Source: Aquimarina pacifica
Lineage (GTDB): Bacteria; Bacteroidota; Bacteroidia; Flavobacteriales; Flavobacteriaceae
Assembly: GCF_000520955.1 (NCBI RefSeq)
Contig: NZ_JACC01000042.1
Coordinates: forward strand, 1 to 32,000
Direction: 5' to 3'
Length of the DNA: 32,000 nt
Part shown: positions 3,148 to 27,992 of the stretch, in pieces
Layout: each line of letters opens with the position of its first letter
How positions within the stretch are numbered: the first letter of the stretch is position 1
Made by a program: the position numbers and the translations under genes
Notes under the pieces: generated by a model
Databases searched by the model: none
Told to the model about the DNA's origin: nothing
Seen by the model: only the letters and a program-made list of their open reading frames with translations

Positions 3148-4041
3148 TTATTTTTTAAGCTTTCCTTTTTTATGTTTTCCCATCTGAAATGTTCTTGAGA
3201 TATTAAATCCAAAATGAATATCTCCGCCAAAGAAATCACCAGTAGATTCGGTGATAAAACTTTTTTCTATCATTGTAATAGAGTTGGATAAAATCATCTG
3301 AAAAACATGTCCTCCGGTCTCTATGTCTACACCAAATGCAATAGAGTTTGTAGTTTCGAAAGAAGATAATTGGTCAAGGGTATAATAATATTCAGCATTT
3401 ATAGACACCCGATTACTAATTTTGATACGATTACCAATACCAACCGCCAAAATATCATGAGGATCATTGGTAAGAGCTACCGAGTTTCTATGGATATAAG
3501 TCGGAGATACTTGTAACGAAAAACCGGGACTAAATTTTCTGGCCATTAAAATTTGAGCTGTGTAAGACATCTTTTGACTTGCTGTAGGTTCATTAGCAGG
3601 GTCGAAGTCTTTTAGTGTTCTATAGGCTGCACTTCCAAACATAGAAACCGATACGGGTAACGAATTAGGTCCTGTGCTTTGTTTTAGTACTTTGTATTTA
3701 AAAAAACCATCATATGTTTTATCAAAACTGCTTCGACCCAAACCAAGCATAAGATCATTTGTTACTCCATACTCAAACGCAAAGCGAATATTTGATTGGT
3801 CCAAACCATAGAGTTCATCAATACCTGTATTTATTCTTCCGAAACGGTGGGAGATAAGAAATACCAATCCTTTTTTTGGACTATTCTCTATAGAATGCCC
3901 GTTTAATATCCGGGTTCCCTTAAAAGTAGCAATGGTTATTATTTTGGTTTCTGGAGATTCGTTTTCAAGAATATCAAAAAGATCTTGAGAAAATCCTTTA
4001 AGACCGATAGTCAAAAAAGTAAGAAAGATTAGTTTTTTCAT
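3148..4041 (-). CDS. predicted outer-membrane beta-barrel protein (DUF5777-like), paralog A
   Basis: 297 aa with a signal peptide MKKLIFLTFLTIGLKGFSQ. Alternating beta-strand pattern and a C-terminal aromatic-rich strand (IHFGFNISRTF). About 40% identical by eye to ORF 10987-11892. Confidence 0.7.
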   Translation of the reverse strand: MKKLIFLTFLTIGLKGFSQDLFDILENESPETKIITIATFKGTRILNGHSIENSPKKGLVFLISHRFGRINTGIDELYGLDQSNIRFAFEYGVTNDLMLGLGRSSFDKTYDGFFKYKVLKQSTGPNSLPVSVSMFGSAAYRTLKDFDPANEPTASQKMSYTAQILMARKFSPGFSLQVSPTYIHRNSVALTNDPHDILAVGIGNRIKISNRVSINAEYYYTLDQLSSFETTNSIAFGVDIETGGHVFQMILSNSITMIEKSFITESTGDFFGGDIHFGFNISRTFQMGKHKKGKLKK

Positions 4042-4046
4042 GATGT

Positions 4047-4589
4047 TTACTTATAAGGTTGGTGATCTAGAGTGAAATCTATTTTTACGACTTCTGCTAT
4101 ATTTTTAATTACGATAGAAGGAATCTTGATATTATATTCTTCGACTGCCACAGGAAAACTACCGATTAGGAGAATGTTAGAATCATTTTTTGTTATTTCA
4201 ACTTCGGTTTGAATCTTTTTCGAAACTCCATGGATAGTCAATAAACCTTCTACGGTCGCTGTTTGGGGTCCAGAGGTTATGGTAGAGAACTGAAGAATTT
4301 TTCCCTTAAAAAATGCTTTTGGATATTTGTCAGACTCCACGTAATTTTCATTAAAATGCTCTTGCATTAGTAATTTTTCGAACATAAATGATTTCATTAA
4401 TATCGATATAGCAATGTCTCCGGTTTCTGCATCAATAATACTCAGAACCTGATGGTTTTTTGCAGTAATATCCTCTAATGGTGAGTGAGAATAGAAGGAA
4501 GTGAATCCTTTTTTTGTTATAAATTTTTTCTGTGCCTGTGCAACGTTTATAAGAAGTAGGCTCATGAATAGAATATGTATTGATTTCAT
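4047..4589 (-). CDS. YceI-family periplasmic lipid/polyisoprenoid-binding protein, paralog A
   Basis: 180 aa with a signal peptide. The conserved block SFYSHSPLEDITAKNHQVLSIID...EHFNENYVESDKYPKAFFKG is typical of the YceI-like domain. About 55-60% identical by eye to ORF 10452-10997. Confidence 0.85.
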   Translation of the reverse strand: MKSIHILFMSLLLINVAQAQKKFITKKGFTSFYSHSPLEDITAKNHQVLSIIDAETGDIAISILMKSFMFEKLLMQEHFNENYVESDKYPKAFFKGKILQFSTITSGPQTATVEGLLTIHGVSKKIQTEVEITKNDSNILLIGSFPVAVEEYNIKIPSIVIKNIAEVVKIDFTLDHQPYK

Positions 4590-4764
4590 TACAAGATTTT
4601 TTGTTAGTATTTTATTGATGATTTGAGGTTGTTTTAACTACGACCAATGCGAATAAAAAACAAAGGATTTACATAATCTGTGAAAACAGAATTTGGCTAA
4701 AAAGGTAATGTCTTGTTTAATCAGGTATGAACGAATGATGCGCATTTTTTTCTTTTTTTTAGAA

Positions 4765-5190
4765 TTAGTTAATAAGAATACATTGTATAAGAATTACATC
4801 CATGAGGTAACCTGTACAGACTCCCTTTATGGTGACATCTTGATCTTTCTTTAGAGAAGTGATTTTTTGTTTTTCTTCGGGCGAAATATGACAAATAACA
4901 TTCCCTGAAAACGAATTATCACTTAGCAGTACGATAGCTTTACCATTTACAGTATCTAACTCAGATATTTTACCAGAAACCTCTATGATTTGGTCTAAAT
5001 ATTTTGAGTTAGCCGTATTTTCATCAGTGCTATACTCGTTTAATAGTGTACTTGAACTAGTTACTATATTTGGTGTGATACTAGCAATATTTGCCGTCTT
5101 AGTATTGTATATATTGTTTGCAATAAGTACACCACCCGTAATAGTGAACAGTATCCATACCATCAAAAGCATTCTTTTAGTATTTATCAT
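4765..5190 (-). CDS. membrane-anchored OB-fold protein (tRNA_anti-like family), paralog A
   Basis: 141 aa with an N-terminal TM anchor. The core LLNEYSTDENTANSKYLDQIIEVSGKISEL...VICHISPEEKQKITSLKKDQDVTIKGVCTGYLMDVILIQCIL matches the pattern of the OB-fold putative-lipoprotein family. Paralog at 10028-10459. Confidence 0.7.
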   Translation of the reverse strand: MINTKRMLLMVWILFTITGGVLIANNIYNTKTANIASITPNIVTSSSTLLNEYSTDENTANSKYLDQIIEVSGKISELDTVNGKAIVLLSDNSFSGNVICHISPEEKQKITSLKKDQDVTIKGVCTGYLMDVILIQCILIN

Positions 5191-5215: not shown

Positions 5216-5590
5216 TTAATTATCTAAGGCTCCACTATCAATCCAGCATTTTATTAATTCTATCTCATCATTGGTAAGAGATCCTCCTTGTGGCATTCTT
5301 CTACTAACTACTTGCCCGCGAATGTTTTGAGCATTAATACTTATATTCTCATATGTTCTTAAATCAGGAAATCTGCTACCCCCGTGACAACCAATACAAT
5401 TGGTGTCGATAATAGATTTGACGTCATCACTAAATGAGATCGTAGTATCACATACTTCGCTTTGCTCATCAGTATCAGGATCATTTTGTTCTGGAGTATC
5501 ATTTTGCTCATTGCCAGTTTCTTCTTCTACATTGTTTTCGCAGGCTAAAAAAGCAATGCTTGCAACTAAAATCAAGAGTGTTTTTTTCAT
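5216..5590 (-). CDS. c-type cytochrome-like lipoprotein with acidic linker
   Basis: CIGCH heme-binding motif and a downstream RRMPQGG (candidate axial Met). Start trimmed to MKKTLLILVASIAFLAC (signal peptide plus lipobox) at 5590. The track ORF extends to 5650 through a non-signal leader. Contains an Asp/Glu/Asn-rich linker. Confidence 0.7.
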   Translation of the reverse strand: MKKTLLILVASIAFLACENNVEEETGNEQNDTPEQNDPDTDEQSEVCDTTISFSDDVKSIIDTNCIGCHGGSRFPDLRTYENISINAQNIRGQVVSRRMPQGGSLTNDEIELIKCWIDSGALDN

Positions 5591-5780
5591 TTTCAAAGGA
5601 GTTTTTGGGTTTGTTTTTTTCGAACGTATCTGTTCTTGTTGTTGATGCAAAGTAACCGCGAATAGCGGGCTTACATCAAATTAAACTGTATGAAAGTGCG
5701 AAAATTAGGGTTGAAAGGGAAAAAATAGAACTGAACTAAACAGCATATTTTGGGGTATTTCTGATTTTTTGGCTGTCCCT

Positions 5781-6610
5781 TCATTACAAGGAGGAATGAC
5801 GAAGTAATCTTATTAATGAGAATAATTAAGATTATAGAGATTGCTGTACTACGTTCGCAATGACGCGTTATTGTCATTACGAGGAGGGACGACGAAGTAA
5901 TCTTATTAATGAGAATAATTAGATTATATAGATTACTTCACTACGTTCACAATGACGTGTTGTATTGTCATTACAAGGATTAACGACGAAGTAATCTTAT
6001 TAATGAGAATAATTAGATTATATAGATTACTTCACTACGTTCACAATGACGTGTTGTATTGTCATTACGAGGAGGAACGACGAAGTAATCTTATTAATTA
6101 GAGTAATTAGATTATATAGATTACTTCACTACGTTCGCAATGACGCGTTGTATGTCATTACGAGGAGGAACGACGAAGTAATCTTATTAATTAGAGTAAT
6201 TAGATTATATAGATTACTTCACTACGTTCGCAATGACGCGTTGTATGTCATTACGAGGAGGAACGACGAAGTAATCTTATTAATTAGAGTAATTAGATTA
6301 TATAGATTACTTCACTACGTTCGCAATGACGCGTTGTATGTCATTACGAGGAGGAACGACGAAGTAATCTTATTAATTAGAGTAATTAGATTATATAGAT
6401 TACTTCACTACGTTCGCAATGACGCGTTGTATGTCATTACGAGGAGGAACGACGAAGTAATCTTATTAATTAGAGTAATTAGATTATAGAGATTGCTTCA
6501 CTACGTTCGCAATGACGTGTTGTATGTCATTACGAGGAGGAACGACGAAGTAATCTTATTAATGAGAATAATTAGTTTATAGAGATTACTTTATTATGTT
6601 CACAATGGTG
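5781..6610. repeat. tandem hairpin-unit array, left block (9 units of 93-94 bp plus a degenerate left arm at 6584-6610)
   Basis: The TCATTAC(G/A)AGGAGG... motif recurs at 5781, 5874, 5968, 6062, 6155, 6248, 6341, 6434 and 6527. The units starting at 6062-6341 are identical. Confidence 0.95.
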
Positions 6611-6622
6611 TACTTTTACTTT

Positions 6623-6922
6623 ATGAAGAAGTCACATGTATATTTTATGACTAATAAAAATAATACAGTAATCTATATTGGTGTTACAAGTAATTTATTA
6701 AAAAGAGTATATCAACATAAAATGAAAGTATACAAAGGATTCGCTTCTAAATACAATTGTGATAAACTTGTTTATTTCGAAGAATTTGATGACATTAATC
6801 AAGCAATTACTAGAGAAAAGCAATTAAAAGCAGGTAATAGAAAACGAAAAGAAGATTTGATAAATGCTAATAATTTAGAATGGAATGATTTATCTAATGG
6901 CTGGCTATTTAACTTCACTTAA
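6623..6922 (+). CDS. GIY-YIG nuclease family protein (small COG2827/URI-domain type)
   Basis: HVYFMTNKNNTVIYIGVTSNLLKRVYQHK...GFASKYNCDKLVYFEEFDDINQAITREKQLKAGNRKRKEDLI carries the GIY(VYF)...YIG motifs, conserved Arg and Glu, and the K-x-W/G-x-R-x-K tail typical of this family. The track ORF starts at 6596, but those extra 9 codons lie in the degenerate repeat arm, so ATG 6623 is preferred. Confidence 0.85.
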   Translation: MKKSHVYFMTNKNNTVIYIGVTSNLLKRVYQHKMKVYKGFASKYNCDKLVYFEEFDDINQAITREKQLKAGNRKRKEDLINANNLEWNDLSNGWLFNFT

Positions 6923-6932
6923 TCAAATGTCT

Positions 6933-7972
6933 TCATTACAAGGAGGAACGACGAAGTAATCTTACTAATGGGAATGCTATATTATACAGATTGCTGCACT
7001 ACGTTCGCAATGACGCGTTGTATGTCATTACGAGGAGGAACGACGAAGTAATCTTATTAATTAGAGTAATTAGATTATATAGATTGCTTCACTACGTTCG
7101 CAATGACGTGTTGTATTGTCATTACGAGGAGGAACGACGAAGTAATCTTACTAATGGGAATCTATATTATACAGATTGCTTCACTACGTTCGCAATGACG
7201 TGTTATTGTCATTACGAGGAGGGACGACGAAGTAATCTTACTAATGGGAATCTATATTATACAGATTGCTTCACTACGTTCGCAATGACGTGTTGTATGT
7301 CATTACAAGGAGTAACGACGAAGTAATCTTATTAATGAGAATAATTAGATTATATAGATTGCTACACTACGTTCGCAATGACGTGTTGTATGTCATTACG
7401 AGGAGGAACGACGAAGTAATCTTATTAATTAGAGTAATTAGATTATATAGATTGCTTCACTACGTTCGCAATGACGTGTTGTATTGTCATTACGAGGAGG
7501 AACGACGAAGTAATCTTACTAATGGGAATCTATATTATACAGATTGCTTCACTACGTTCGCAATGACGTGTTATTGTCATTACGAGGAGGGACGACGAAG
7601 TAATCTTACTAATGGGAATCTATATTATACAGATTGCTTCACTACGTTCGCAATGACGTGTTGTATGTCATTACAAGGAGTAACGACGAAGTAATCTTAT
7701 TAATGAGAATAATTAGATTATATAGATTGCTACACTACGTTCGCAATGACGTGTTGTATGTCATTACGAGGAGGAACGACGAAGTAATCTTATTGATGAG
7801 AATAATTAGATTATAGAGATTGCTTCACTATGTTCGCAATGACGCATTATTGTCATTACGAGGAGGGACGACGAAGTAATCTTACTAATGAGAATGCTAT
7901 ATTATATAGATTGCTTCACTACGTTCGCAATGACGTGTTATTGTCATTACGAGGAGGAACGACGAAGTAATC
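6933..7972. repeat. tandem hairpin-unit array, right block (12 units of 90-94 bp, including ~2.2 copies of a 368-bp higher-order repeat)
   Basis: The TCATTAC motif recurs at 6933, 7025, 7119, 7209, 7300, 7393, 7487, 7577, 7668, 7761, 7853 and 7944. Pairs 7025/7393, 7119/7487, 7209/7577, 7300/7668 and 7393/7761 are each exactly 368 bp apart. Confidence 0.95.
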
Positions 7973-8020
7973 TTTTAAAAATAGAAAGAAATTGTTCAAA
8001 TGGTAATGAGATAGGTAACA

Positions 8021-9620: not shown

Positions 9621-10027
9621 TAACAAAAAATACTTCTGCCGGAGATTCTCATCTGGTCAATATTTTATACCATGCTTCGGGGGGAGCGTCACAGTAAAAC
9701 CAAAAGATGAGAATACCGGTACAAGAATAATGATCGATGTAGTATTTAATGTATAAGATGAGTTTTATAGTAATATTAAAGTTTTGATTCTCATTGTATA
9801 AAGTGTTAAATAATAAATAACGTTACCATTGATATAATAGATGTGTACAATAAAAATTTAAGTTCGTTTCGTTTGGTTATTTGAAGAAGGTATGGGAGTT
9901 TAGTATAACTATTCTCCCGTATACTTCTATTTATGTTAAAATTTTATAAATTGTAAAAAAAATATAGAGAATGATTGGTGGATACTTTTGATGAGAATTA
10001 ATTTTGAATATGAGGTTGCTCAAGCCT

Positions 10028-10459
10028 ATGAATAAAAAAAACAAAATAATATATTTGACAGGAGGTATTGCACTATTTTTTGGTCTTTTTTTGTGGATAA
10101 ATAAAGGAGAATCTATTGATGTTACCACCATTTCTACAGAGGTAGGAATACGTTCGGAAGTATTGATATCTAAGTTTCGCGAAAATGAAGAATTAGCGAA
10201 TTCTATGTATACCGAAAAAGTAATAGAAATTAGTGGTGTCATAAAAGAAATCACTTTTTTGAACAATAGAACAACGATTGTATTGTATGGTAATGATAAA
10301 GGATCTTACATATTATGTGATATGCAATCAAGTCAAAAACAAGAAGTCAAAGACCTTAAAAAAGATCAAAACGTTTCAATAAAAGGTATTTGCAAAGGAT
10401 TTCTTAAAGATGTTATAGTGTTAAACTGTATTTTGATTAATAAAAAAATGGATGAATAA
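10028..10459 (+). CDS. membrane-anchored OB-fold protein (tRNA_anti-like family), paralog B
   Basis: Same architecture and conserved C-terminal block (KKDQNVSIKGICKGFLKDVIVLNCILI) as ORF 4765-5190. Start trimmed from 10004 to MNKKNKIIYLTGGIALFFGLFLW. Overlaps the next gene by 8 nt. Confidence 0.7.
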   Translation: MNKKNKIIYLTGGIALFFGLFLWINKGESIDVTTISTEVGIRSEVLISKFRENEELANSMYTEKVIEISGVIKEITFLNNRTTIVLYGNDKGSYILCDMQSSQKQEVKDLKKDQNVSIKGICKGFLKDVIVLNCILINKKMDE

Positions 10460-10997
10460 AATTCTAGCTCTCGTATTTTTTTTGATAACCATTACCAGCT
10501 TTGATTCAAAATCAGATCAGGTAATCGCGCGTCAGGGACAGGTTTCTTTTTTTTCTTATACTTCTGTAGAAAATATTGAAGCAAAAAATAATCAAGTGTT
10601 AAGCATTCTTGATCTGTCAAAAAATGAAATAGCCATCAGTATGCTCATGCGAGCGTTTGTATTTGAGAAATCACTTATGCACGAGCATTTTAATGAGAGC
10701 TATATAGAATCAGACATATATCCCAAAGCTACTTTTGAAGGTGCAATCGTAAATTTTGATCCACTAGCAGAAAAGCAAGTGAGAATCATAAAAGGAATAT
10801 TAAGTATTCATGGTATTGATAAAGAAATAGAAATAAAAACTACTATTGAGAATACGAATGAATCCTATATTCTAGAGGGAGACTTTACGGTAGAGGTTAA
10901 GGATTTTGATATCAAAATCCCGCCACTATTAGCAAGCAACATAGCAAAAACTATATCAATAAAATTTAGATTCGAATATCAGCCGTATGAACAATAG
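10452..10997 (+). CDS. YceI-family protein, paralog B
   Basis: 181 aa with a signal peptide. Contains SFFSYTSVENIEAKNNQVLSILD...EHFNESYIESDIYPKATFEG. Confidence 0.85.
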   Translation: MNKILALVFFLITITSFDSKSDQVIARQGQVSFFSYTSVENIEAKNNQVLSILDLSKNEIAISMLMRAFVFEKSLMHEHFNESYIESDIYPKATFEGAIVNFDPLAEKQVRIIKGILSIHGIDKEIEIKTTIENTNESYILEGDFTVEVKDFDIKIPPLLASNIAKTISIKFRFEYQPYEQ

Positions 10998-11892
10998 CAC
11001 ATGTTTTGTTTTATGTTTTTTTATAATGATGACATTGAGTATATCGGGACATGCCCAGAATTTACTTGATGCATTAGAAAAAGAGTATCCCGATACACCT
11101 CAGTATGAGATGGCTACTTTTAAGACCACGCGAATTGCATTGGGACATTCTATAGAAAATCGAAAAAAAGGAGTATTAGAAATAAGAACGACCAATAGAT
11201 TTTGGAATCTTCCTAATAATCAAGATAGTCAAAGTTTTTTTGTTGACAAAGTAAGTAGCAGAATAGCACTTGAGTACGGAGTTTCTGATAGAATGACAAT
11301 CGGGGTAGGAGGAACTACCTTTGATGGTGTTTTTGATGGTTTTCTAAAATATAAATTGATTAGACAGCGTAGTGATGCTAAAGGCTCTCCTCTAAGTGTT
11401 ACACTATTTCAAGGAGGATCCTATAGAAGCAAGCGGTTCGGAAATATTAATGCATTTGATGAGTTTTATGATAAAGTAGCTTTGACAAGCCAAGTATTAA
11501 TTGCACATAAATTTAATCCCAAATTTTCAGTACAATTGGCACCTACTTTTATTCATAGAGGGTCAACCGTTTTTGAAGAAGATCCAGAAAATCAATTTGC
11601 ATTGGGTATTGCAGCGAGACATAAGATAGGTGGTCATGCGTCAATAATATCAGAATATTATCATGTAATGAATCCCCTAGAATCTATTGATACTTATAAT
11701 GCCTTTGCACTAGGTGTAAATTGGGAGTTAAGTGATGTAATGTTACAATTCTATATGACAAATGCAAGAAGTACGGTAGAAGACGCATTTATAACACAAA
11801 CAACAAATAACTTTAATTTTAAAGATGGAAATTTTCACTTTGGCTTTAATGCAACATTTATTTTACACTTAAAGAACAAAAAACTAAAGTGA
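10987..11892 (+). CDS. predicted outer-membrane beta-barrel protein (DUF5777-like), paralog B
   Basis: 301 aa with a signal peptide. The N-terminal LLDALEKEYPDTPQYEMATFKTTRIALGHSIEN parallels paralog A. C-terminal FHFGFNATFIL strand. Overlaps the upstream gene by 11 nt, consistent with an operon. Confidence 0.7.
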   Translation: MNNSTCFVLCFFIMMTLSISGHAQNLLDALEKEYPDTPQYEMATFKTTRIALGHSIENRKKGVLEIRTTNRFWNLPNNQDSQSFFVDKVSSRIALEYGVSDRMTIGVGGTTFDGVFDGFLKYKLIRQRSDAKGSPLSVTLFQGGSYRSKRFGNINAFDEFYDKVALTSQVLIAHKFNPKFSVQLAPTFIHRGSTVFEEDPENQFALGIAARHKIGGHASIISEYYHVMNPLESIDTYNAFALGVNWELSDVMLQFYMTNARSTVEDAFITQTTNNFNFKDGNFHFGFNATFILHLKNKKLK

Positions 11893-22667: not shown

Positions 22668-24830
22668 TTAATTAGGATTATGTTTTTTGATAGGTTGTTT
22701 TTTAGGTATTTGCATAGATATAATTGCTCCACTACGTTTTTCGTGAGTGTCAATATGTAAGATACCACCTAAGTCATTTAGGCGATTTTTTATGTTTAAT
22801 AACCCTATTCCTGGTTTTGTAGAGGTAGGGTCAAATCCTTTTCCATTATCTTCAAAAAGTAGATGAATGATATCATTTATTAGATCAATTTGAATATTTA
22901 CTTGTGAAGCATTGGCATGCTTGATGGTATTGGTAATTAGTTCTTGAAGAATGGCAAATATTTCGTTATGAATTTGTGTATTTAGGTCATTAATATCATT
23001 TTCTGGATATGCAATAACTGAGATAGAAAGGTTACTGCCTTCACCGATATTAGTCATGTATTTTTTTATCAGTACGATAAAATCATTTTTATAGAATTTA
23101 TCAGGAAGTAGATTATGAGATAATGTTCGTACTTGTTGATAGGTTTCATCTAATTGGTTATAAAGGTTTTTAGTGCTTAATGATTGTCTAGAAAGATCTT
23201 CAAATTGTAATTTTAAGGCAGCGAGATTACCGCCAATGCTATCATGAAGCTCTTGTGCTACACGCTTTCTTTCTTTATCCTGCCCACCAATTGAGGCTTT
23301 GACTAATTTTAACTCTTGGTCTTTAATTAGAGCTAGTATTTTTTGCTCGTTGATTTGTTTTTGCTGTTTTTGAAATATCCAAAATATAATACTACCGATA
23401 ATCAATAACAGGGATAATAATATTATAAAGAAGTAGAACTGTTTTTGCTTTTGTTTTGCCTCATGAACAACTTTGATTTGTTCTTCTTTTTCCTGATTAA
23501 GCCTTACTATTGTAAGTTTTTTCTTTTTGGTATCGTATTCTTTTTCTAGTTGGGCAACTTTAGTATATACTTCAGTATTCATAATAGAATCCTTAAGTGT
23601 GTAGAAGTTTTTAAGATGTGTTAATGCTTTTTTTGGTTGATTTATTTTTTCATAATACAGGCTATATGCTTTTTCTAGATAAATTGTATTAGTGGTAATT
23701 TTTGGAGTTTTTTTATTTATCGTCTCTAATTCTTTAATTAGTTCTTTTGCTTTTGTATAGTCTCCTTTTTCAAGATATAAGGTGATCAAAGCCTGAGTAG
23801 AGTCATATTTTAGAGTTTCTTTTTTAATTTGTTTTGCACTATTATATGCTTTTATAAAATAGCTTTCTGCTTTATGATTGTTTTTTAGATTATTAAAATA
23901 TAGTTTTCCCTTCTCAAGATAGATAATTGATAAATGACCAATATTGTTCATTTTTTTTGCCAAAAAAATAGCAGAGTCACCAGATTTTTCTGCTTCTTTA
24001 TTGAGGTTAAGATAGCGTTGGGATTCTGCTAAGGCCATATAATTGACCAATAAGGTAAATTGATTATTATTTTTTCTACTAAAAATAATTCCTTTCTCTA
24101 AGTAATATGTTGCAGTTTCATATTGTTTCCATTTGTTATAACAACTTCCTAATAAACTATATGTACTGGCTATATGTTTTAGGTCTTTATGTTTTTCTTT
24201 TATTTCTAAGGATTTTAGGAAACTTTTTGCTGATTTTTCATAATTACTTAATTTAGAGTATAGTACTCCCATGTGTTCATAGGTTTCATGAATTTTGGTG
24301 ATATAATTACTACGATTTGCTGCAATAATTGTAGAATCCATATAATCGATAGCTTTATAATAATCATCATCCATATATGACATCAACCCCATTTTGTCAT
24401 AATATGTAATCCAGCTTTTACTATCTGGATACTCCTTAAGTAATGTTCGAGCTTTTTTTAATAGGTCTCTGGCTTTATCATACCCTTTCCCTGCCAGAAT
24501 TACATTAACTTTTTCGCAATATGCATAGGATAATTCTTCTTTAGCATTTATTTTTTCGCCCAAAGCAATCGCTTTATTTATAAAGTATAAAGAAGAATCA
24601 ATTTTGATTTGGTTTGCATATTGAAATCCAATTTCTGTATAGATCTCTACTTGACATTTTGTAGAGACTTTGGGTAACATTTTGTAGCAATATTGGATAA
24701 TCTCTTCTGTATTATTTGTTGTATCGACATGGGTTCGCCATTGCGTACATATATCATTAATCTCGTTAGAGGATAAGCAAAAAGAGTTCAGAGAAATAAA
24801 AAGGAAAATGGTGGTAGTGAATCGGTTCAT
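22668..24830 (-). CDS. TPR-repeat sensor histidine kinase (HisKA_3 / NarL-partner type)
   Basis: 720 aa. Signal/TM segment, then ~400 aa of TPR-like repeats, a TM segment (FYFFIILLSLLLIIGSIIFWIF), a coiled coil, the H-box AQELHDSIGGNLAALK, and an HATPase_c domain (ELITNTIKHA...DNGKGF...GIGLLNI). No response-regulator gene is adjacent. Confidence 0.85.
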   Translation of the reverse strand: MNRFTTTIFLFISLNSFCLSSNEINDICTQWRTHVDTTNNTEEIIQYCYKMLPKVSTKCQVEIYTEIGFQYANQIKIDSSLYFINKAIALGEKINAKEELSYAYCEKVNVILAGKGYDKARDLLKKARTLLKEYPDSKSWITYYDKMGLMSYMDDDYYKAIDYMDSTIIAANRSNYITKIHETYEHMGVLYSKLSNYEKSAKSFLKSLEIKEKHKDLKHIASTYSLLGSCYNKWKQYETATYYLEKGIIFSRKNNNQFTLLVNYMALAESQRYLNLNKEAEKSGDSAIFLAKKMNNIGHLSIIYLEKGKLYFNNLKNNHKAESYFIKAYNSAKQIKKETLKYDSTQALITLYLEKGDYTKAKELIKELETINKKTPKITTNTIYLEKAYSLYYEKINQPKKALTHLKNFYTLKDSIMNTEVYTKVAQLEKEYDTKKKKLTIVRLNQEKEEQIKVVHEAKQKQKQFYFFIILLSLLLIIGSIIFWIFQKQQKQINEQKILALIKDQELKLVKASIGGQDKERKRVAQELHDSIGGNLAALKLQFEDLSRQSLSTKNLYNQLDETYQQVRTLSHNLLPDKFYKNDFIVLIKKYMTNIGEGSNLSISVIAYPENDINDLNTQIHNEIFAILQELITNTIKHANASQVNIQIDLINDIIHLLFEDNGKGFDPTSTKPGIGLLNIKNRLNDLGGILHIDTHEKRSGAIISMQIPKKQPIKKHNPN

Positions 24831-25241: not shown

Positions 25242-26621
25242 ATGCAAAATCAATTATATGCAGTTATTGATGTAGAAACTACAGGTGGTGGTATTATGGG
25301 CAACCGTATAACAGAGATTTGCATTGTGCTACTACAGGGGACTACGGTTATTGACAAGTTTACTTCTTTGGTTAATCCAGAGCAGCATATCCCTCCTTTT
25401 ATTACAGGACTTACGGGTATTGATGATGATATGGTCAGAAATGCACCGACATTCGATGAGGTTGCTGATCGTATTTTAGAAATGACTACAGGAGCTATTT
25501 TCGTAGCTCATAATGTTAATTTTGACTATAATGTAGTTCGAGGAGAGTTTAAAACGCTAGGATATGCATTTGTTAGAAAAAAACTATGTACTGTACGTCT
25601 TGCAAGAAAATTAATACCAGGGTTACTTTCTTATAGTTTAGGGAAGCTTTGTTCATCACTTAATATCCCATTAGTAGATCGGCATCGTGCAGAGGGTGAT
25701 ACCGATGCTACAGTACTTTTGTTTCAAAGAATTTTGGCACTTGATCCAGAGCATATATTAATAAATACTTTTTTGAATGCTCGTTCTAAAGAAGCAACGC
25801 TTCCGCCACATCTTAGTGCAGATCATATAAATGCATTACCAGAAGAAACAGGTATTTATTTGTTTAGAGATCAAAAAGGTACTGTTATTTATGTAGGTAA
25901 GGCAAAAAATATAAAACAAAGGGTGTTAAGTCATTTCTATGATAAAAAGAATAAAGAATATACTCTTGGTCAAAATACTTATACTATTGACTATGAAGTT
26001 ACAGGTAATGAATTGATCGCTTTATTGTTAGAGGCAGATAAAATACATCAATATTATCCTAAGTTTAATAGCGCTCAAAAAAAACCAGTGATTCCGTATC
26101 GGATATTACAGTATACGAATAGAAAAGGGGTGATACAATTAGCCATTGACAGATCAAAAAAAATAGACCATTCGTTAGAAGTTTTTTATAAGAGATCTGA
26201 TGCTATTGAGCGATTAGAACAGCTATGTTTTGATCATCAACTCTGTCCTAAATACTGTAATCTGCAAAATACAACAGCACATTGTTCTCATTATCGTATT
26301 AAGAATTGCAAAGGGATATGTCAGGATAAAGAATCTGTAGCATTGTATAATATACGAGTACAGAGTGCATTAGCATCATTACAAGAACAAAAAGAGAGCT
26401 ACCTGATACGGGAAAAAGGTAGAGCTATAGATGAACATAGTTTTGTAATGATACAAAACGGAATATATAAAGGGTTTGGGTATGTTCATCAATCAGAGCA
26501 AGTATCACATTTTGATGATTTTGAAACTTTTTTGATACAACAAAAACACACGTACCATACTACCAAAATCATTAAAAGCTATGTACGTAAAAATGGGGGA
26601 AATAATATTATATATATGTGA
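25242..26621 (+). CDS. DnaQ-like DEDDh 3'-5' exonuclease fused to a UvrC/Cho-type GIY-YIG nuclease domain
   Basis: 459 aa. Exo I AVIDVETTG, Exo II FVAHNVNFDY, Exo III HRAEGD. Then GIYLFRDQKGTVIYVGKAKNIKQRVLSHF...EALLLEADKIHQYYPKFN (GIY-YIG as in the UvrC N-terminus). Confidence 0.85.
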   Translation: MQNQLYAVIDVETTGGGIMGNRITEICIVLLQGTTVIDKFTSLVNPEQHIPPFITGLTGIDDDMVRNAPTFDEVADRILEMTTGAIFVAHNVNFDYNVVRGEFKTLGYAFVRKKLCTVRLARKLIPGLLSYSLGKLCSSLNIPLVDRHRAEGDTDATVLLFQRILALDPEHILINTFLNARSKEATLPPHLSADHINALPEETGIYLFRDQKGTVIYVGKAKNIKQRVLSHFYDKKNKEYTLGQNTYTIDYEVTGNELIALLLEADKIHQYYPKFNSAQKKPVIPYRILQYTNRKGVIQLAIDRSKKIDHSLEVFYKRSDAIERLEQLCFDHQLCPKYCNLQNTTAHCSHYRIKNCKGICQDKESVALYNIRVQSALASLQEQKESYLIREKGRAIDEHSFVMIQNGIYKGFGYVHQSEQVSHFDDFETFLIQQKHTYHTTKIIKSYVRKNGGNNIIYM

Positions 26622-26771
26622 ACAGGCGTATACTTTTTGAGTAAAAAGGCTACTTATACTATTTTTTTGGTTGTATAAAAATGCTACGGTATCCAAAAAT
26701 TGTAAAATATAGGTGCAAATTTTTTTATATCGAATACAAGAGTGTACTCCAGTTCTATAAAAAGAAATGGT

Positions 26772-27992
26772 ATGGATACAACGATTATACATTTTGATCT
26801 GGATACTTTTTTTGTGTCTTGTGAGCGTCTTTTAGATAGTAGATTAAATAATAAACCTGTGATTGTAGGAGGTACCGGAGATCGAGGTGTAGTGAGTGCA
26901 GCAAGTTATGAGACGAGGGCCTATGGTGTTCATTCGGGGATGCCGATGAAGATGGCTAGACAATTATGTCCTAATGCAATATATATACGTGGTAATGCAG
27001 GTACCTATACCAAGTTTTCAAAATTGGTGACAGAAATATTACAGGGTGAAGTACCTGTTCTCGAAAAAGCAAGTGTTGATGAGTTCTATGCAGACCTTAC
27101 CGGTATGGATCGATTCTTTGGGTGCTATAAGTTTGCATCAGAATTACGAAGTAAAATTATTCGTGAATCAGGATTGCCAATTTCTTTTGGGCTTTCTGTA
27201 AATAAAACTGTTTCAAAAATTGCTACCAATGAAGCAAAACCTAATAATCAATTAAAAATTGATACAGGATATGAAAAAGCTTTTTTGGCTCCTTTATCTA
27301 TCAAAAAAATACCTATGGTAGGGGAGAAGACCTATCGTACATTTTGTAATATGGGAATCAAAAATGTGCATACAGTACAGCAAATGCCTGTCGAGATGAT
27401 GACCTCTGTATTCGGAAAAAATGGCCGTGTCATTTGGCAACGCGCTAATGGTATAGATCGCAGTCCTATTATAAAATATCATGAACGCAAATCTATTTCT
27501 AGTGAGCGTACCTATGGGCAGGATACTACTGATAGTACAATGTTAAAAACTACGATTACAGCAATGGCAGAAAATCTGGCTTTTCAATTGCGAAGAGGAG
27601 GGAAACTAACATCTTGTGTTACTGTAAAGATTCGTTATTCTGATTTTCAGACCTATTCAAAACAACTGAAAATACCGTATACCTCGGCAGATCACCATTT
27701 AATTCCTATAGTGATGCAGCTTTTTGACCAATTGTTTAGTAGAAGGTTGTTAATACGTCTTGTAGGAGTGCGATATAGTAGTTTGACAACAGGTACGTAT
27801 CAAATTAATTTGTTTGATGATGAAAAGAAAACAGTCAACCTATATAAGGCTATGGATGCAATACGTATTCGTTATGGAGATCGGAGTATTATGCGCGCAG
27901 CAACGATGGGGGACGGAGCGCGTACAGTAGGAAACTTTACCAACCCTTTTAACGGAGAACCTCCTATTGTTTTGGCACATAGGACGCAGTAA
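26772..27992 (+). CDS. dinB: Y-family DNA polymerase IV (catalytic residues intact)
   Basis: IIHFDLDTFFVSCE and SVDEFYADLTG keep the catalytic Asp/Asp/Glu. SFGLSVNKTVSKIATNEAKPN (HhH/thumb) and a little-finger region follow. Start trimmed from 26742 to MDTTIIHFDLD. Confidence 0.9.
   Translation: MDTTIIHFDLDTFFVSCERLLDSRLNNKPVIVGGTGDRGVVSAASYETRAYGVHSGMPMKMARQLCPNAIYIRGNAGTYTKFSKLVTEILQGEVPVLEKASVDEFYADLTGMDRFFGCYKFASELRSKIIRESGLPISFGLSVNKTVSKIATNEAKPNNQLKIDTGYEKAFLAPLSIKKIPMVGEKTYRTFCNMGIKNVHTVQQMPVEMMTSVFGKNGRVIWQRANGIDRSPIIKYHERKSISSERTYGQDTTDSTMLKTTITAMAENLAFQLRRGGKLTSCVTVKIRYSDFQTYSKQLKIPYTSADHHLIPIVMQLFDQLFSRRLLIRLVGVRYSSLTTGTYQINLFDDEKKTVNLYKAMDAIRIRYGDRSIMRAATMGDGARTVGNFTNPFNGEPPIVLAHRTQ

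Follow-up and report, generated by a model that had tools for sequence, protein, structure and literature searches.

Small single-domain GIY-YIG proteins (CDD cd10448) have been described as site-specific nucleases, 'Ssn' (Chenal et al., Nat Commun 2025; PMC11893778). An Ssn binds a hairpin repeat, called NTS in Neisseria and more generally the Ssn-related motif (SRM), solely in single-stranded DNA (ssDNA); SsnA binds a CGTC-tagged hairpin and cuts a few nucleotides upstream of the repeat, and a role of the Neisseria SsnA in transformation has been demonstrated (PMC11893778). SRMs lie near 71% of the ssn homologues and on both sides of the gene in 42%, and the SRM-ssn-SRM layout, its likeness to an insertion sequence (IS) and the parallel with repetitive extragenic palindromes (REPs), REP-associated tyrosine transposases (RAYTs) and bacterial interspersed mosaic elements (BIMEs) were already noted in 2025 (PMC11893778). 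A superfamily of CGTC-tagged REPs had been reported from Bacteroidetes, Neisseria (including dRS3), Wolbachia and Rickettsia, which in 2013 'apparently lacked a dedicated transposase' (Di Nocera et al., BMC Genomics 2013; PMC3733652). Here we analyse a locus of Aquimarina pacifica in which a GIY-YIG nuclease gene interrupts a long tandem array of hairpin repeats. The window, i.e. the whole stretch of DNA studied, comprises 32 kb (assembly GCF_000520955.1, contig NZ_JACC01000042.1, positions 1-32,000, forward strand). Very probably, it contains an Ssn/SRM locus, that is, a gene for an Ssn-family endonuclease together with its cognate CGTC-tagged repeats in opposite orientations, whose cassette was inserted and whose repeat dimers multiplied in place.

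Tandem Repeats Finder (TRF) places 93-bp tandem arrays at 5781-6607 and 6933-7974, interrupted by the ssn gene, with higher-order periods of 275 and 368 bp. The array has 20 units (period 92-94 bp in its upstream part) and spans, gene included, 5781-7974. Each unit carries two oppositely oriented elements, the 'right arm' (read below as SRM(+)) and the 'left arm' (SRM(-)), whose consensus sequences match 21 and 19 times, respectively, all inside 5781-7972, against 0 matches in shuffled sequence; the SRM total for the window is 41 copies, all held by this one array. Facing arms are separated by 8-10 nt in the other units, so that the short loop of the initial annotation stands and its range of 9-10 nt does not, whereas the arms that flank the gene are 322 bp apart. 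The spacers between units measure 26-29 nt and occur in a few recurring variants. The components of the locus are as follows.

5651-8020: the whole intergenic region, 2.37 kb, from a cytochrome-c-like gene to a LytTR regulator gene.
5781-6583: upstream array part, nine SRM(+) ('right arms') alternating with eight intact SRM(-) ('left arms') (TRF, arm searches, unit table).
6584-6610, minus strand: degenerate SRM(-), the 'degraded left arm', GATTACTTTATTATGTTCACAATGGTG, in array register, with the minus-strand tag CACC, not CGTC.
6611-6622, plus strand: leader TACTTTTACTTT, 12 nt, between SRM(-) and the start codon.
6623-6922, plus strand: ssn gene, encoding a 99-aa single-domain GIY-YIG nuclease (Pfam, identical NCBI protein, SsnA homology).
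6929-6961, plus strand: SRM(+) directly 3' of the gene, with GTC at 6929-6931, TTC at 6932-6934 and the ATTAC stem from 6935.
6962-7974: downstream array part, eleven more SRM(+)/SRM(-) dimers, with a final lone SRM(+) at 7943-7972 (TRF, unit table).

The initial annotation had placed the gene exactly between a transition-degraded left arm and a right arm inside the array, and the coordinates bear this out. The left arm at 6584-6610 follows its predecessor at a distance of exactly 93 bp. Its substitutions, 5 relative to the local variant (units 1 and 2) and 7 relative to the canonical arm, are transitions without exception. Its similarity, the significance of which had been left to a proper check, holds: none of the background 27-mers (59,406 positions) has fewer than 9 mismatches to the left arm, and in fixed register such a likeness has a probability of 3.6e-9 when measured against the local variant, or of 3e-7 for the canonical arm. 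The right arm, taken as the 29 nt at 6933-6961, does begin 10 nt past the TAA stop (6920-6922); its description as intact needs amending, as its GTC tag is shifted by 3 nt (GTC-TTC-ATTAC) and CAAGG stands in place of CGAGG. The array also gives rise to spurious long open reading frames (ORFs) of up to 147 aa (window 5952-7970, plus strand) with periodic text such as VITRRNDEVILLIRVIRLYRLLHYVRNDALY, which gene callers could report as proteins and which can thereby mislead annotation.

The gene product appears to be a clear member of the Ssn family. The ORF carries a GIY-YIG domain (PF01541, E=8e-17, residues 13-85 of the 108-aa ORF), and neither Pfam nor NCBIfam finds a second domain. Translation starts not at 6596, as first annotated, but at ATG 6623; the resulting product of 99 aa matches the NCBI entry 'GIY-YIG nuclease family protein' from Aquimarina pacifica in every residue. 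Against the 94-aa SsnA orthologue of N. gonorrhoeae the identity is 45% over 88 aa, ungapped (BLASTP, E=2e-29), and Y7, Y18 and E65 align with Y6, Y17 and E64 of SsnA, the residues mutated by Chenal et al. (PMC11893778). With this E-value the protein falls well within the published homologue criterion of E<1e-10 (PMC11893778); it is also single-domain and shorter than 150 aa. The orthologue was obtained because tblastn of a plasmid collection matched two N. gonorrhoeae chromosomes, in which the 94-aa ORF has the length of SsnA; these 2.17-Mb chromosomes are filed as plasmids in PLSDB (NZ_CP119140.1 and NZ_CP119142.1), a misplacement that enabled the comparison. The gonococcal gene has an NTS(-) upstream and an NTS(+) 3 nt past its stop, a layout that matches the window. 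Other affiliations were considered and set aside. NCBIfam gave only weak sub-threshold matches to UvrC and intron-endonuclease models; the YhbQ-type branch was rejected, a PDB sequence search having returned only a weak UPF0213 match (1ywl, E=0.17); and a phage homing endonuclease is disfavoured, with 0 matches in phage collections and three partial, weak ones in viral contigs.

The arms themselves share one form, namely a (C/T)GTC tag, a 5-bp stem ATTRC, a purine-rich loop of 12-16 nt, the return stem GYAAT and a C. On the plus strand the right arm reads (T)GTC-ATTAC-GAGGAGGAACGACGAA-GTAAT-C, on the minus strand the left arm reads CGTC-ATTGC-GAACGTAGTGAA-GCAAT-C, and all intact window copies begin (C/T)GTC-AT. 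With the Neisseria NTS (CGTC-ATTCCCGCG...CGCGGGAAT-C) they have in common the GTC tag, the ATT at the start of the stem, the AAT at its end and the next C. Mutagenesis of the NTS had singled out these very positions as important: the tag governs cutting, and for binding no base counts for more than the C after the stem (PMC11893778). Repeats collected from 80 related loci (see below) with a search pattern that left the stem bases free show that the stem covaries: position 4 is G-C in 123 repeats, A-T in 97 and mixed in 28, position 1 is A-T in 209 of 282 and position 2 T-A in 244 of 282, and the rarer stems ACTAC/GTAGT, ATGGC/GCCAT and ACTGC/GCAGT pair as well. In an alignment of 125 sequences, the covariation score is 0.305, compared with 0.195 +/- 0.016 for shuffles (0 of 500 reach it) and at most 0.197 for slid controls. 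Every arm is thus an SRM in its own right, with a separate, covarying stem of 5 bp, which makes the 93-bp unit a heterodimer in which two SRM subtypes stand in inverted orientation. The initial annotation had taken the two arms as halves of a single hairpin; as each folds independently and elsewhere also occurs alone or in direct orientation, that view is abandoned. In family terms, the 'hairpin arms' appear to be SRM copies of the CGTC-REP superfamily. Predicted folding energies are about the same for a left arm paired with its facing right arm (-9 to -11 kcal/mol) and for a right arm that pairs over the 28-nt spacer with the left arm that follows (-10.4 kcal/mol), so that 'a gene in the loop' and 'a gene between two tag-outward dimers' describe one and the same sequence.

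A generic pattern (GTC, any 5-bp stem, C) proved too loose, as it has 14 background matches in the window (5 before and 9 after the array); the hairpin pattern was therefore tightened, and positional profiles and shuffles served as controls. A scan of the whole window at Rfam gathering thresholds matched no family. A CRISPR-like or guide array was rejected as well, since the spacers recur in few variants and no Rfam family matches.

The Ssn/SRM reading is also supported by the fact that gene and repeat go together far beyond A. pacifica. A scan of species-representative genomes yielded 80 loci from many genera of the Flavobacteriaceae (10 kb per genome), with homologues of 71-85% identity. In these loci, SRM-like hairpins number 3.7 per kb and strand up to 250 bp from ssn and ~0.1, near the shuffled level, beyond 1 kb; the surroundings of the gene are ~30-fold enriched in them. 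A tag-proximal SRM(-) occurs at most 45 nt upstream of ssn in 45 of 81 loci (mode 20-23 nt), an SRM(+) at most 40 nt downstream in 48 of 81 (1 nt past the stop in 13 loci), and both are present in 28 of 81, with a chance expectation of 0.03 per 40 nt. The bracketing of further homologues by inverted repeats, for which the initial annotation had proposed a check, does recur in many genomes. In most of the related loci the gap between SRM(-) and start codon is 20-23 nt and contains a TATATTTR box, a putative Bacteroidota -7 promoter element; in the window the gap is 12 nt. Tandem arrays of SRM dimers beside ssn recur too, for instance in Mangrovimonas (104 bp), Lutibacter (90 bp, 8 copies), Mariniflexile (187), Algibacter (115) and Formosa (121), among others, the 20-unit array of the window being the largest among the loci compared. 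Inverted repeats also bracket ssn in distant homologues, and the gene-repeat pairing extends from the 80 flavobacterial loci to Neisseria, Azospirillum, Rhizobium, Novosphingobium, Spirosoma and Planktothrix. This cross-phylum association effectively refutes the idea that ordinary terminator or regulatory hairpins happen to have a GIY-YIG gene among them. The intergenic location of the hairpins is the single point in favour of such a coincidence, to which we assign a vanishingly small probability; neither the absence of an Rfam match nor the absence of the repeats from the orthologous intergenic region of congeners (see below) fits it.

Two of the distant loci have settings of their own. On plasmid AZO_p3 of Azospirillum lipoferum (L093), an ssn homologue interrupts an otherwise standard operon, where it has sufB and sufC as neighbours and is accompanied by an SRM dimer at either side. 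On plasmid p1 of Planktothrix agardhii (L089), a homologue with TGTC-tagged repeats lies between an MmeI-type restriction-modification gene and the DISARM gene drmA, i.e. in a defence-island context.

By homology with the Neisseria and Wolbachia SsnA, the A. pacifica enzyme should bind the SRM only in ssDNA and is predicted to nick ~3 nt 5' of the tag, the 3-nt figure being our own arithmetic from published oligonucleotide lengths. Because the tags of facing arms point towards each other, both predicted nicks would fall in the 8-10-nt loop, which is the position that the gene occupies. The proposal of the initial annotation that the nuclease targets the hairpin agrees with the biochemistry published for homologues (PMC11893778), and the window protein is clearly homologous to them. 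The gene and its two flanking SRMs would then constitute the SRM-ssn-SRM cassette typical of the family, which arrived by insertion, after which the dimers around it would have multiplied in place by tandem duplication, via unequal recombination or slippage.

Several observations weigh against this interpretation and have to be taken into account. The published SRM pattern, HGTCWYN(0-2)YYVSBRHN(0-5)WNVSBRGN(0-2)RNCYNB, matches 9 times in a 3.2-kb Neisseria locus but neither in the window nor in any of the 80 flavobacterial loci. The hairpin predicted for a lone flavobacterial SRM is very weak, at -1 to -2 kcal/mol, and not more stable than those of shuffled sequences; recognition may consequently differ from that in Neisseria. 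The layout with tags facing inward is not universal: strict detection gives 44 SRM pairs that span the gene, 19 with the tags toward it, 6 with the tags away and 19 in direct orientation (SRMs elsewhere also occur singly), and the tags face the gene in Neisseria and Azospirillum while they point outward in the Rhizobium and Novosphingobium homologues. Moreover, the tags of both SRMs adjacent to the gene are damaged or displaced, and the enzyme may as a result not cut at the gene borders. Only one other SRM in the array is so affected, at the outer left edge, a pattern most simply explained by the general tendency of edge copies in tandem arrays to diverge faster; tag loss might protect the gene borders from self-cutting, but other loci keep intact tags there.

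The conserved gene order in congeners gives access to the history of the locus. In Aquimarina sp. AD10, A. gracilis and A. algiphila the order of the DUF5777/YceI/OB-fold operons, the cytochrome-c-like gene and the LytTR regulator is kept, and the orthologous intergenic region measures 270-326 bp, without ssn and without SRM, versus 2.37 kb in the window. Because these three species have a short empty site, the array with its gene is a lineage-specific block, namely a 2.2-kb insertion in the A. pacifica lineage. The left flank aligns with the empty sites over ~95 nt, and the junction is too diverged for exact placement; a target-site duplication, sought at the array borders of the window against the empty sites, is not visible. 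Empty sites had been asked for in the initial annotation and do exist, with the gene-repeat block at variable positions, yet they lack the hairpin that it had expected there. Since they carry no hairpin, its alternative, that the nuclease homed into a pre-existing hairpin, does not hold at these sites. The variable position is evident from a conserved block of seven genes, in which Lutibacter, Tenacibaculum and Robertkochia each have ssn in a different intergenic gap; one of the matching empty junctions measures 13 bp. In addition, the genes flanking the 81 loci belong to 573 families, the largest of which is common to 8.

Within the array, units 3-6 are identical and units 10-13 recur as units 14-17 (a 368-bp block), so that it grew by tandem duplication and not by separate insertions. 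Whole blocks of ssn plus array have been duplicated in Mariniflexile and Lacinutrix (L056, L053). In Tamlana sp. (L016, 5496-5614), the ssn gene in the second copy of a tandem cassette lacks its central part, so that codons 1-35 run straight into the final few codons; both SRMs, intact, and the promoter region are retained. This copy is a direct example of a gene-bearing unit becoming gene-less and supports the 'miniature' route of the initial annotation, though not transposition; gene-less dimers are plausibly deletion derivatives of gene-bearing units, and what fails is their spread in the manner of miniature inverted-repeat transposable elements (MITEs), for they multiplied in tandem and are not dispersed. 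A second ssn remnant was looked for at the left edge of the window array by tblastn and local DNA alignment, and nothing convincing beyond the shared SRM was found.

Another arrangement is seen in Robertkochia aurantiaca (L050), where a 100%-identical 93-nt direct repeat flanks ssn (4878-4970 and 5323-5415). Each copy is made up of half an SRM(+), namely the 3' one, plus the spacer and an SRM(-); past the CGTC tag only 2 more nt are still identical. Upstream of the repeat, a pair of SRMs meets directly tag-to-tag (GACGTC), without a loop.

The comparative evidence that the cassette was mobile in the past is real; it does not show the mode of movement. One may go further and regard the SRM-bracketed ssn cassette as an active, autonomous selfish element, with the SRMs as terminal repeats and the 93-bp dimers as MITE- or REPIN-like derivatives that Ssn still mobilises. 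The multitude of genomic contexts and the empty sites suggest as much, and so do the presence of a second locus in four genomes (Algibacter mikhailovii, L013/L037; Lutibacter, L068/L071; Lutibacter UBA8495, L059/L060; Gelidibacter, L029/L072), the tight cassette borders (20-23 nt upstream, 1-7 nt downstream), the internally deleted Tamlana copy, the Robertkochia repeats, the wedged Azospirillum gene and the IS analogy raised by the Ssn paper (PMC11893778). Nevertheless, the gene-less units of the window sit in one tandem array with block duplications instead of being dispersed, SRM density in the flavobacterial loci drops close to the shuffled background beyond ~1 kb from ssn, the array borders show no target-site duplication and the orientation of the tags relative to the gene varies between lineages. 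Moreover, GIY-YIG enzymes are hydrolases, and strand-transfer chemistry is not known among them. We therefore consider continued selfish transposition rather unlikely.

Alternatively, the system could be a domesticated host system that does not move at all and, for example, restricts or shapes the recombination of incoming ssDNA as in Neisseria, the array being a by-product of replication slippage induced by the hairpins. The demonstrated role of the Neisseria SsnA in transformation argues for it, as do the strong conservation of the protein (73-86% identity across genera), the signatures of tandem duplication in the array and the fact that most genomes contribute a single ssn locus. Against it speak the absence of the block from the orthologous site in congeners and the concentration of SRMs at ssn, which is unlike a genome-wide restriction marker (10 kb per genome covered); also, natural transformation is not known in Aquimarina. 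In our judgement an immobile host function is possible but doubtful, with slightly better prospects than the selfish element. Under the preferred reading of an inserted and locally amplified Ssn/SRM cassette, its role could be restriction of incoming ssDNA as in Neisseria, selfish persistence, or both.

In a more daring variant, Ssn would itself generate the repeat arrays and travel along with them. With the nick site just 5' of each CGTC tag, a dimer cut at both of its outward-facing tags would carry nicks offset by the length of one dimer; once filled in and rejoined, the break would leave a tandem copy of the dimer, and an ssn cassette captured at such a break would come to sit exactly between two tags. 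Such a process would explain regular arrays with short tag-to-tag junctions of variable length, and it matches the window gene between facing tags, the 93-nt repeats of Robertkochia and the Azospirillum ssn with a dimer on each side. Although we think it improbable, more so than either of the two preceding alternatives, it would, if true, represent a hydrolytic route to repeat amplification and gene mobility that is driven by an ssDNA nuclease, and it would provide the enzyme-less CGTC-REP superfamily with a propagating enzyme.

A few features elsewhere in the window deserve mention. Two diverged, paralogous three-gene operons (OB-fold 'tRNA_anti-like', YceI, DUF5777; 3148-5190 on the minus strand and 10004-11892 on the plus strand) face outward around the ssn/LytTR/cytochrome-c region, an arrangement kept in the three other Aquimarina species; no inverted repeat between them was found at the DNA level. 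A second, unrelated GIY-YIG-like gene falls within 25242-27992, next to a gene for a DinB-like Y-family polymerase, and encodes a protein of 459 aa whose N-terminus is DnaQ-like (exonuclease) and whose middle region weakly resembles the GIY-YIG N-terminal motif (tblastn, E=0.001). A 23-bp tandem repeat of 2 copies is found at 24654-24700 (TRF).

The tie between nuclease and hairpin was established experimentally in 2025, and the view of the initial annotation that no such model existed is out of date, since the association, the SRM-ssn-SRM layout and the IS and REP/RAYT analogies had been published (PMC11893778). What the present locus adds is incremental. The Ssn/SRM pairing is extended to the Flavobacteriaceae, with a variant of the repeat that is invisible to the published pattern; as that pattern finds none of the repeats and the main text of PMC11893778 makes no mention of Bacteroidota, Flavobacteria or tandem arrays, the flavobacterial repeats appear to be a divergent SRM subclass that has so far gone uncounted. 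For the same reason, the reported fraction of ssn genes 'without SRM' is probably too high. New are the empty sites in three Aquimarina species, the deleted Tamlana cassette, the duplications of gene plus array and the growth of the array by tandem duplication, and these loci offer clean comparative material for the hypothesis that such cassettes are or were mobile. The enzyme and its repeat further constitute a candidate enzyme/site pair for ssDNA tools.

Comparison with known systems places the locus as follows. With homing endonucleases of the I-TevI type it shares the catalytic fold and a gene situated at the predicted cut place of its own product; however, the window protein is a single domain without a DNA-binding domain, intron, intein or phage matches, and Ssn homologues cut solely ssDNA, so that it does not belong among the GIY-YIG homing endonucleases. 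A MITE or an IS with terminal inverted repeats is not what the window contains either, given one tandem array, no border duplication and a nuclease of the hydrolase type. The resemblance to REP/REPIN-RAYT systems, BIMEs and IS200/IS605 elements is closer, in that inverted hairpin repeats flank a nuclease gene that is usually present once, the enzyme reads the repeats as ssDNA via a short unpaired tag and the repeats form inverted dimers and clusters. The enzyme there, though, is a HUH/Y1 transposase that forms covalent intermediates, and the tag is GTAG, whereas the window combines a GIY-YIG hydrolase with a CGTC tag, which sets it apart from REPIN/RAYT; REPINs are, moreover, dispersed and the window repeats tandem.

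The CGTC-REP superfamily and the Ssn/SRM system remain as the nearest relatives. The families CGTC-1 to CGTC-4 have a stem of 8-9 bp and a loop of 4-5 nt, as against 5 bp and 12-16 nt in the window, and tandem arrays of 20 dimers are not described in PMC3733652; the unpaired CGTC/TGTC tag, the stem that starts with A-T and then T-A, the short unpaired tail and the frequent inverted dimers, heterodimers included, are the same. From the published SRMs, with their 9-bp GC-rich stem, 3-5-nt loop and hundreds of dispersed copies, the flavobacterial repeats differ by a 5-bp AT-rich stem, a loop of 10-30 nt (GAGG...CGAA) and their organization in long, regular tandem arrays of heterodimers at ssn. 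In all other respects compared the locus follows the Ssn/SRM plan: a protein of similar size (about 95-100 aa) with one GIY-YIG domain and the catalytic residues, inverted repeats on both sides of its gene, an SRM(+) directly after the stop and repeats clustered near the gene.

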